Sequence record: PQ510734.1
Source: Escherichia phage A6-6
DNA length: 64,000 nucleotides
Strand: one strand, 5' to 3'
Shown here: one piece after another, positions 41,197 through 42,903 of the stretch
How the letters are laid out: the number at the start of each line of letters is the position of its first letter
How positions within the stretch are numbered: position 1 is the first letter of the stretch
Position numbers and translations under genes: made by a program
Notes under the pieces: generated by a model
The model's input: only the letters and a program-made list of their open reading frames with translations
Database searches by the model: none
Told to the model about the DNA's origin: nothing

Positions 41197-42903
41197 ATGG
41201 CTTTTACAGTTGATATAACTCCTAAAACACCTACTGGAGTTATAGATCAGACTCAGCAGTTTACTGCTACACCCAGTGGTCAAACTGGAGATGGACCTAT
41301 TACATATGCTTGGACTGTGGATGATGTTCCACAAGATGGAGCTGAAGCAACTTTTAGTTATGTACTAAAGGGACCTGCCGGTCAAAAGACTATTAAAGTA
41401 GTTGCAACAAATACGGTTCCAGAAGCTGAAGCTGAAACAGCAGAAGCTACTACAACTATCACAGTTCAAAATAAGACACAAACGACCACCTTAGCTGTAA
41501 CTCCTAATAGTCCTGACGCCGGAGTAATCGGAACAGCTATTGAATTTACGGCTACTTTAGCTTCGCAGCCATCGGGCGCAAACGCTACTTATCAATGGTA
41601 TGTAGATGATTCTCCTGTGGGCGAAGCAACTAACGCTACGTTCAATTACACTCCTGCCGAAAGCGGGGTAAAAAGAATTAAGTGTGTGGCTCAAGTAACT
41701 GCGACAGATTATGATGCACTAAGCGTTACTTCTAATGAAGTATCACTGACTGTTAATAAAAAGGAACAGACAACTACTTTGGCAGTAACTCCTGATAGTC
41801 CTCCAGCAGGAGTAATCGGAACCCCAGTTCAATTTACTGCTGCCTTAGTTTCTCAACCCGCTGGAGCATCTGCTACATATAAATGGTATGTTGACAGTTC
41901 TCAAGTTATTGGAGAAACTAACGCTACGTTCAATTACACTCCAACTACAAGTGGAGTAAAAATAATTAAATGCGTAGCCCAAGTAACTGCAGAAAATTAC
42001 AATGAAAAGGAAGTTACTTCGAATGAAGTATCTTTGACTGTTAACAAGAAAACACAAACGACTACCCTAGCTGTAACTCCTGCTAATCCTGGTGCCGGAG
42101 TAATTGGAACAGCTGTTGAATTTACCGCCGCTTTAGCTTCTCAACCTGATGGAGCATCTGCTACGTATCAGTGGTATGTAGATGATTCACAAATTAGTGA
42201 AGCAACTTCCGCTACATTTAGCTATACTCCTACTACAATTGGAGTTAAAAGAATTAAATGCGTAGCTCAAGTAACCGCGGCAGATTATGATGCAAAGGAA
42301 GTTACTTCGAATGAAGTATCATTAACGGTTAATAAGAAGACAATGAATCCACAGGTTACATTGACTCCTCCTTCTATTAACGTTCAGCAAGATGCTTCGG
42401 CTACATTTACTGCTAATGTCACTGATGCCCCAGAAGAAGCGCAAATTGAATATTCATGGAAGAAAGATTCTTCTCCTGTAGAAGGGTCAACTAATGTATA
42501 CACCGTTGATACCTCATCTATTGGAAGTCAAACTATTGAAGTTACTGCAACTGTTACTGCTGCTGATTATGATAGCAAAACTATTACAGCAGAAGGTCAA
42601 GTTCAGGTAACTGATAAAGTTGCTCCAGAACCAGAAGGTGAATTACCTTATGTTCATCCTCTTCCACACCGTAGCTCAGCTTACATCTGGTGCGGTTGGT
42701 GGGTTATGGATGAAATCCAAAAAATGACTGAAGAAGGTAAAGATTGGAAAACTGAAGATCCAGATAGTAAATACTACCTGCATCGTTACACTCTTCAGAA
42801 GATGATGAAAGATTATCCAGAAGTTGATGTCCAAGAATCACGTAATGGATATATCATTCATAAAACTGCTTTAGAAACTGGTATCATCTATACCTATCCA
42901 TAA
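41197..42903 (+). CDS. hoc: Hoc, highly immunogenic outer capsid protein, expanded (5 Ig-like domains + capsid-binding C-terminus)
   Basis: 568 aa; N- and C-termini match T4 Hoc as recalled; three tandem copies of a ~96-aa Ig-like domain. Confidence 0.9.
   Translation: MAFTVDITPKTPTGVIDQTQQFTATPSGQTGDGPITYAWTVDDVPQDGAEATFSYVLKGPAGQKTIKVVATNTVPEAEAETAEATTTITVQNKTQTTTLAVTPNSPDAGVIGTAIEFTATLASQPSGANATYQWYVDDSPVGEATNATFNYTPAESGVKRIKCVAQVTATDYDALSVTSNEVSLTVNKKEQTTTLAVTPDSPPAGVIGTPVQFTAALVSQPAGASATYKWYVDSSQVIGETNATFNYTPTTSGVKIIKCVAQVTAENYNEKEVTSNEVSLTVNKKTQTTTLAVTPANPGAGVIGTAVEFTAALASQPDGASATYQWYVDDSQISEATSATFSYTPTTIGVKRIKCVAQVTAADYDAKEVTSNEVSLTVNKKTMNPQVTLTPPSINVQQDASATFTANVTDAPEEAQIEYSWKKDSSPVEGSTNVYTVDTSSIGSQTIEVTATVTAADYDSKTITAEGQVQVTDKVAPEPEGELPYVHPLPHRSSAYIWCGWWVMDEIQKMTEEGKDWKTEDPDSKYYLHRYTLQKMMKDYPEVDVQESRNGYIIHKTALETGIIYTYP
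41473..42339 (+). repeat. Three tandem ~288-bp repeats inside hoc, each encoding one Ig-like domain
   Basis: Units 41473-41763, 41764-42051, 42052-42339 align at DNA and protein level (TTTLAVTP...KCVAQVTA...VTSNEVSLTVNKK). Confidence 0.85.

Follow-up and report, generated by a model that had tools for sequence, protein, structure and literature searches.

We examined a 64,000-nucleotide stretch of Escherichia phage A6-6 (sequence record PQ510734.1; called the window below, with positions counted from its first letter) for the length and domain make-up of the gene hoc. The open reading frame (ORF) at 41197-42903 is, judged by its sequence, Hoc, the outer capsid decoration protein of a T4-like (Tequatrovirus) phage. 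A phmmer search of PDB sequences (E<=0.001) matched T4 Hoc at E=6.4e-220 and did not return RB49 Hoc, the divergence of which is too great for this method. Pfam returned a PKD match (3.7e-13, 49.7 bits against a cut-off of 23.5 bits) and an I-set match (24.4 against a cut-off of 23.7), and the PKD and immunoglobulin (Ig)/I-set matches spanned the repeat region together with domain 3. The T4 protein (NP_049793, 376 amino acids, aa), encoded at the same locus, aligned with 77% identity over 378 columns spanning its residues 2-376. The first 117 residues of the window protein aligned with T4 residues 1-117 and the C-terminal 284 residues aligned end to end with T4 residues 93-376. Domains 1 and 3 and the capsid-binding domain thus find their T4 counterparts over their full length, the C-terminal domain being nearly identical. 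The difference lies in domain 2, of which T4 Hoc has one copy (hereafter a cassette) whereas the window protein has three, and the latter is 192 aa longer and more acidic (isoelectric point 4.46 and a charge of -30 at pH 7, against 4.74 and -14 for T4 Hoc).

The three cassettes form a tandem array. Tandem Repeats Finder reported a repeat at 41473-42340 with a period of 288, 3.0 copies, 76% matches, 0% indels and a score of 979, and an ungapped repeat search gave three copies at 288-nucleotide (nt) spacing. The units are in frame, 96 aa each, and every one of them aligned by BLASTP to T4 Hoc domain 2 (residues 93-188). A preliminary description of this sequence had called the gene a 568-aa Hoc with tandem 288-bp repeats, exceeding a 376-aa T4 Hoc by exactly two units of about 96 aa. 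The T4 alignment, the gene order and the repeat searches bear this out: the T4 reference gene (NC_000866) measures 1131 bp and encodes 376 aa, so that the two proteins are not of similar length, and 568 = 376 + 2 x 96, both extra units being copies of T4 domain 2. The same description had put the divergence between units at 10-20% of the DNA, which was too low. The measured identities between units were 74.0, 78.1 and 78.8% (74-81% at the aa level), a divergence of 21-26%.

The domain layout was also examined by structure prediction with AlphaFold. With a mixed-length alignment (63 sequences), the predicted local distance difference test score (pLDDT) fell below 50 across the boundary between cassettes B and C, the confident parts of the model being domains 1 and 3, cassette A and a portion of cassette B; the poor boundary is probably due to the 376-aa and 472-aa rows, which align ambiguously to three cassettes. 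The final run, in which the alignment was limited to nine sequences of 568 or 570 aa, reached a mean pLDDT of 80 and gave five beta-sandwich modules (residues 1-91, 93-187, 189-283, 285-379 and 381-471) of seven to nine strands each, with a block pLDDT mostly of 78-92. The C-terminal domain, helical in the final run, was of low confidence in both; the corresponding domain of T4 Hoc (283-376) has been solved on the capsid (PDB 5vf3, 8t1x and others). When the mixed-length model was compared with PDB by Foldseek, the top matches were strings of Ig domains: Sidekick Ig1-5, the repeat region of a Marinomonas ice adhesin, ICAM-5 and Dscam. The five predicted modules and these matches support a domain count of five, the number that the preliminary description had proposed to check in this way.

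Features of the hoc locus in the window, with the observations on which each assignment is based
Feature	Position	Strand	Extent	Observations
hoc coding sequence	41197..42903	+	568 aa plus stop, 1707 bp	ORF and T4 Hoc alignment
Ig-like domain 1	41197..41472	+	aa 1-92	distal fibre tip; aligns to T4 1-92; AlphaFold strands 4-91, pLDDT 75-92
Domain-2 cassette A	41473..41760	+	aa 93-188	
Domain-2 cassette B	41761..42048	+	aa 189-284	
Domain-2 cassette C	42049..42336	+	aa 285-380	
Ig-like domain 3	42337..42618	+	aa 381-474	aligns to T4 189-282; AlphaFold strands 386-471; Pfam I-set/Ig_3 at 385-469
C-terminal capsid-binding domain	42619..42900	+	aa 475-568	ungapped to T4 283-376, few substitutions
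Ribosome-binding site AAGGA	41186..41190	+		6 nt upstream of the hoc ATG, read from the sequence
Terminator-like hairpin AAGGGGC-TTCG-GCCCCTT, then T-rich run	42908..42935	+		just past the hoc stop, read from the sequence
inh-like gene	40507..41187	+	226 aa	directly upstream of hoc; size and position as T4 inh
UvsW-type helicase gene	38945-40456	-		neighbour of the inh-like gene

The surroundings of hoc are those of T4. Downstream of the gene lie a DUF2774 (gp24.3-like) ORF, a 92-aa gp24.2-like ORF and a 334-aa RNA ligase 2-like ORF, and the resulting order uvsW / inh / hoc / 24.3 / 24.2 / rnlB / gene 24 is that of T4 and is common to other Tequatrovirus records. On a related contig, the homologue of the inh-like gene has Pfam matches to Phage_Inh_N/C. 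The inh-like gene is probably co-transcribed with hoc, and the hairpin past the hoc stop is likely the intrinsic terminator of this putative inh-hoc transcript. Directly upstream of inh and of hoc, the + strand had no exact match to the T4 late promoter TATAAATA; the sole match nearby, at 40486-40493, is on the - strand. In T4, inh and uvsW are separated by segE, a homing endonuclease gene; at this place the window has only a 50-nt gap (40457-40506). The same gap was seen in YUEEL01, Solly, teqskov and others, and Yersinia phage PST carries segE.

Length classes and cassette types in Tequatrovirus

Hoc proteins of 376, 472, 568 and 664 aa occur in Tequatrovirus, corresponding to one, two, three and four domain-2 cassettes. 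Among the 120 best protein matches listed, 81 clusters were of 376 aa, 29 of 472 aa and 7 of 568 aa, with lengths of 570, 468 and 378 aa also present. The rule length = 376 + n x 96 aa held in 118 of 121 cases (the 120 homologues listed and the window). The 568-aa form was found in YUEEL01, ESh16, ESh26, ESh34, ESh36, EC101 and UGKSEcP1, and the 664-aa form in slur03, slur14, Sfk20 and FJ1. The 664-aa sequences sit in a 90% cluster with a 570-aa representative and were hence missing from the first protein search. In Sfk20 and slur03 the gene measures 1995 bp and encodes four cassettes and six Ig-like domains; both genes were found by single-unit searches, at 937-2931 of the retrieved stretches.

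A census at the DNA level was based on the hoc spans recorded in 60 evenly spaced records of 656 matching phage records, since a gene with one copy matches the full length of the query in several pieces and the megablast ranking hence cannot yield copy numbers. Spans of about 1419 bp, equivalent to two cassettes, were found in about 15 of the 60 sampled records and spans of 1707 bp (three cassettes) in 2, YUEEL01 and ESh34; most of the remaining records had a 1131-bp gene with one cassette. The hoc gene of ESh26 is also 1707 bp long. The exact Hoc protein of the window was absent from a collection of 15 billion sequences, the nearest being 98% identical. Long Hoc proteins are nevertheless less rare than the preliminary description implied, since forms of 568 and 664 aa are already present in RefSeq/GenBank phages. 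Besides the 96-aa steps there is a small second length polymorphism in Hoc. The protein of UGKSEcP2 (P0009) has 570 aa, two residues having been inserted in domain 1, within its acidic loop (...SEAEPETAE...), and that of phage wV7 has 474 aa (1001-2425 of the retrieved stretch).

Cassettes were typed by their best aa identity to the four cassettes of Sfk20, named A to D in their order along the protein, which are 74-83% identical in aa to one another. The window array was typed A-B-C, with 94, 97 and 95% aa identity to Sfk20 A, B and C. At the nt level, the first cassette of Solly and that of teqskov showed 98% identity to cassette A. For cassette B the identities were 97.6% with Sfk20 cassette 2 and 94% with Pu-Krd-SF4 cassette 1; for cassette C they were 93.8% with Pu-Krd-SF4 cassette 2 and 90.6-91.7% with the third cassettes of Sfk20 and slur03. 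Each cassette of the window is therefore nearer to a cassette elsewhere (94-98%) than to its own neighbours in the array (74-79%). The phages slur03 (NC_042129.1), slur14 (NC_028448.1), Shigella phage Sfk20 and FJ1 carry the three cassettes of the window in equal order with an extra cassette D between C and domain 3; the window lacks D and has a D-like tail on C. YUEEL01 Hoc (NC_054935.2, YP_010074903.1; annotated "Hoc-like head decoration") and other 568-aa proteins have the same length, five-Ig architecture and locus as the window. The YUEEL01 type, however, holds the set A-C-D, and its cassettes compared position by position are 80-87% identical in nt to those of the window, against 92-98% for domain 3 and the C-terminus.

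The order of the cassettes was compared in 133 Hoc proteins. Single cassettes were typed A in 47, C in 31, B in 5 and D in 1. Two-cassette collinear arrays were AB (16), AD (3), AC (3), BC (1) and BD (1); three-cassette arrays were ABC (5), ACD (4) and ABD (3); and two proteins had ABCD. The other architectures were AA (3), CC (3) and CB (2). Collinear subsets of A-B-C-D thus make up all 12 of the three-cassette arrays and, among the multi-cassette arrays as a whole, 38 of 46. A shuffled order in YUEEL01-type arrays had been considered and was rejected once the four-cassette phages were found, A-C-D being collinear with them. A search of the papers available to us for copy-number polymorphism of hoc cassettes, or for the A-B-C-D order, in Tequatrovirus yielded general statements only.

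The divergence of the cassettes gives an indication of their age. Between the units of the window the synonymous divergence (dS) was 0.81-1.00, with a ratio of nonsynonymous to synonymous divergence (dN/dS) of 0.16-0.19. For the equivalent cassette in different phages, dS was 0.05-0.54 and dN/dS was 0.05-0.32. As dS between units exceeds that of the same cassette across phages, the paralogues predate the divergence of the phages compared, in agreement with the old duplications of the preliminary description. On these substitution rates, the cassettes are old paralogues, each under purifying selection. The differences that they have accumulated are unevenly placed. Of the positions that differ among the three window units, 20 of 30 were outside the predicted strands (Fisher p=0.008), and 15 of 21 high-entropy positions were in loops. 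Across homologues, the mean pairwise aa identity was 86% for domain 1, 85-88% for the domain-2 cassettes and 93% for domain 3, reaching 98.5% for the capsid-binding C-terminus (118 homologues).

Turnover of the cassette array

Over 24 kb the backbone of the window is 97-98% identical to that of many Tequatrovirus genomes, the best being ADUt (97.9%). Despite this closest backbone, ADUt hoc has a single cassette, indicating fast turnover of the array. Sliding identity against ADUt and ESh26 was 93-100% on the flanks and dropped to 72-89% only at about 41311-42311, an island made up of the whole cassette array and the distal half of domain 1; identity rose again some 25 nt short of the end of cassette C. 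The cassette itself is of C type for about 245 nt. Its last 40 nt or so have 1 mismatch to the D tail of Sfk20, against 8 to the C tail.

T4-type phages recombine heavily during replication. One array form may be turned into another when cassettes recombine homologously, in register but unequally, whether inside one genome or between phages that infect the same cell, and the occurrence of collinear subsets of A-B-C-D fits such a process. In the window, a D cassette would have been lost by a crossover between C and D, leaving the D-like tail on cassette C. We regard as very probable that the window Hoc has the layout domain 1 - A - B - C - domain 3 - capsid-binding domain, with domain 2 present as three diverged tandem cassettes; unequal recombination is the process that we propose for the array.

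Several points weigh against this account. The tail of the last cassette is similar in all phages whatever the cassette type, and the match of the C tail to D could reflect homogenisation of the last 40 nt or so with the conserved domain-3 flank. The direction of change may be either loss from ABCD or stepwise gain, and the window array may just as well derive from a longer form that has lost cassettes. The preliminary description spoke of an expanded Hoc; the extra cassettes are real, but the direction was assumed, the array being one of many collinear subsets of A-B-C-D. Furthermore, 8 of the 46 multi-cassette arrays were typed AA, CC or CB, their second unit being a T4-type cassette roughly equidistant from A-D or, in one case, a far more diverged cassette. 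The four cassette types, as read from the alignments, are a simplification, the cassettes being visibly mosaic, and since the sequences are phylogenetically related, the collinearity counts do not represent independent events.

The AA, CC and CB arrays were also considered as inversions. This was rejected: they reflect typing ambiguity caused by the T4-type cassette plus one highly diverged cassette (P0022). The latter is the second cassette of a 472-aa Hoc from Logan assemblies, with 52-60% aa identity to A-D, and represents a further diverged cassette lineage.

Consequences for the capsid fibre

In T4, Hoc forms 155 fibres of about 180 Å; this acidic protein affects both dispersion and aggregation (PMC10385173). 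Hoc also mediates adherence to fucosylated mucin glycans (PMC9271167). With its conserved C-terminus, the window protein would still attach to gp23 hexamers at their centre, and its fibre is predicted to be about two Ig domains longer than that of T4. Taking about 40-45 Å per Ig domain, a figure of our own, this would add roughly 80-90 Å to the T4 length. A longer and more acidic fibre is the likely effect of the extra cassettes. Surface adhesion and the geometry of capsid display may change with it, as the preliminary description had suggested. In a related phage, fucose and MUC2 are bound by domain 1. In phage PNJ-6, MUC2 was pulled down by domain 1 and not by domains 2 or 3 (PMC11150434). 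For this reason we suggest that the extra domain-2 modules may act mainly as a spacer, moving domain 1 further from the capsid.

Each cassette could alternatively be a distinct ligand-binding or antigenic module and not mainly a spacer. The presence or absence of A, B, C and D would then make up an adhesin or antigenic-variation system that is combinatorial and subject to diversifying selection. Such a reading would account for the concentration of variation in loops, for the persistence of cassette lineages across many phages, and for the sharp bounds of the hypervariable island, which covers the exposed half of domain 1 and the whole array in a backbone of about 98% identity. It would also agree with the binding of glycans by Hoc Ig domains, the specificity of which is altered by single substitutions (PMC9271167). 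However, overall dN/dS per cassette (0.05-0.32) is well below 1, and domain 2 did not pull down MUC2 in the sole domain-dissection experiment that we found (PMC11150434). We hold this reading to be doubtful.

A second alternative is that copy number drifts in a nearly neutral manner, unequal recombination adding and removing cassettes of a dispensable protein without phenotype. Hoc is indeed non-essential in T4 (PMC10385173), and all four length classes coexist among near-identical backbones. Drift alone would nevertheless leave unexplained the purifying selection on each cassette, with frames intact across many phages, the retention of paralogues for long enough to reach a dS of about 1, and the maintenance at genome cost of homologues that have as many as 10 Ig domains (PMC10385173). 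We consider it unlikely.

A private and recent expansion of a T4-like single-copy hoc in the lineage of the window is suggested by the single-copy gene of ADUt, its closest backbone, but is very improbable. The dS of 0.8-1.0 between copies is far above that of the same cassette between phages, cassettes A, B and C match counterparts in Solly/teqskov, Sfk20 and Pu-Krd-SF4 at 94-98% nt identity, and the ADUt cassette, with 80-82% nt identity to the window cassettes, is no simple derivative of any of them.

Finally, tandem repeats are a classic cause of assembly error, and at least two public records, KNP5 and PST, fail in the hoc repeat region; but that the three copies are an artefact, over-expanded from a one- or two-copy gene, is scarcely credible, given that the units share just 74-79% identity and that no exact repeat in the gene is longer than 27 nt, which allows reads of at least 100 nt to be placed unambiguously, that the reading frame is intact, that a separate closest match exists for every copy among other phages (94-98% nt), that an ENA metagenome contig (MEGAHIT k141, ERZ27280760) carries a 1707-bp hoc of 97.2% nt identity with the same A-B-C array, and that the protein database holds at least 8 distinct sequences of 568 or 570 aa. 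The preliminary description had likewise argued against an artefact, and the short exact repeats and the independent contig agree with it. As to the two defective records, that of Shigella phage KNP5 (NC_055713.1) has 990 N inside hoc (2733-3722 of the retrieved stretch) and only a 3' fragment annotated, and that of Yersinia phage PST (KF208315.1) has a frameshifted hoc of 1420 bp annotated as a truncated coding sequence (1001-2420 of the retrieved stretch).

Hoc homologues have been described with between 1 and 10 Ig-like domains, the Hoc of Serratia phage Muldoon having 1174 aa and 10 such domains (PMC10385173). Hoc proteins of this kind in Straboviridae share the design of a conserved capsid-binding domain with a variable Ig string. 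They are much more distant, being likened here by their published description, whereas the variation to which the window belongs lies within one genus and concerns one repeated domain type. The window hoc is a slightly new allele of a known form, as RefSeq already has annotated Hoc proteins with five and six Ig domains from this genus, and the ordered A-B-C-D polymorphism is a modest by-product of its analysis that is not special to this gene. Beyond the account by unequal recombination, the genus may hold an ordered set of cassettes (A-B-C-D, the T4 type and at least one more diverged type) that is reshuffled among co-infecting phages, particular sets or lengths being selected for glycan adhesion or for evasion of antibodies. 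This extension seems to us rather improbable; if true, it would amount to a population-level combinatorial system at the capsid surface, more than a simple length polymorphism.

For annotation, these results mean that hoc length differences in multiples of 288 bp are real biology, in a region where some public assemblies (KNP5, PST) break. T4 vaccine and vector platforms use Hoc as their display scaffold, and the protein mediates the adherence of phages to mucus. With a natural series of fibres of one to four cassettes on backbones that are nearly identical, the effects of fibre length and loops on mucus retention, particle dispersion and immunogenicity could be tested directly.

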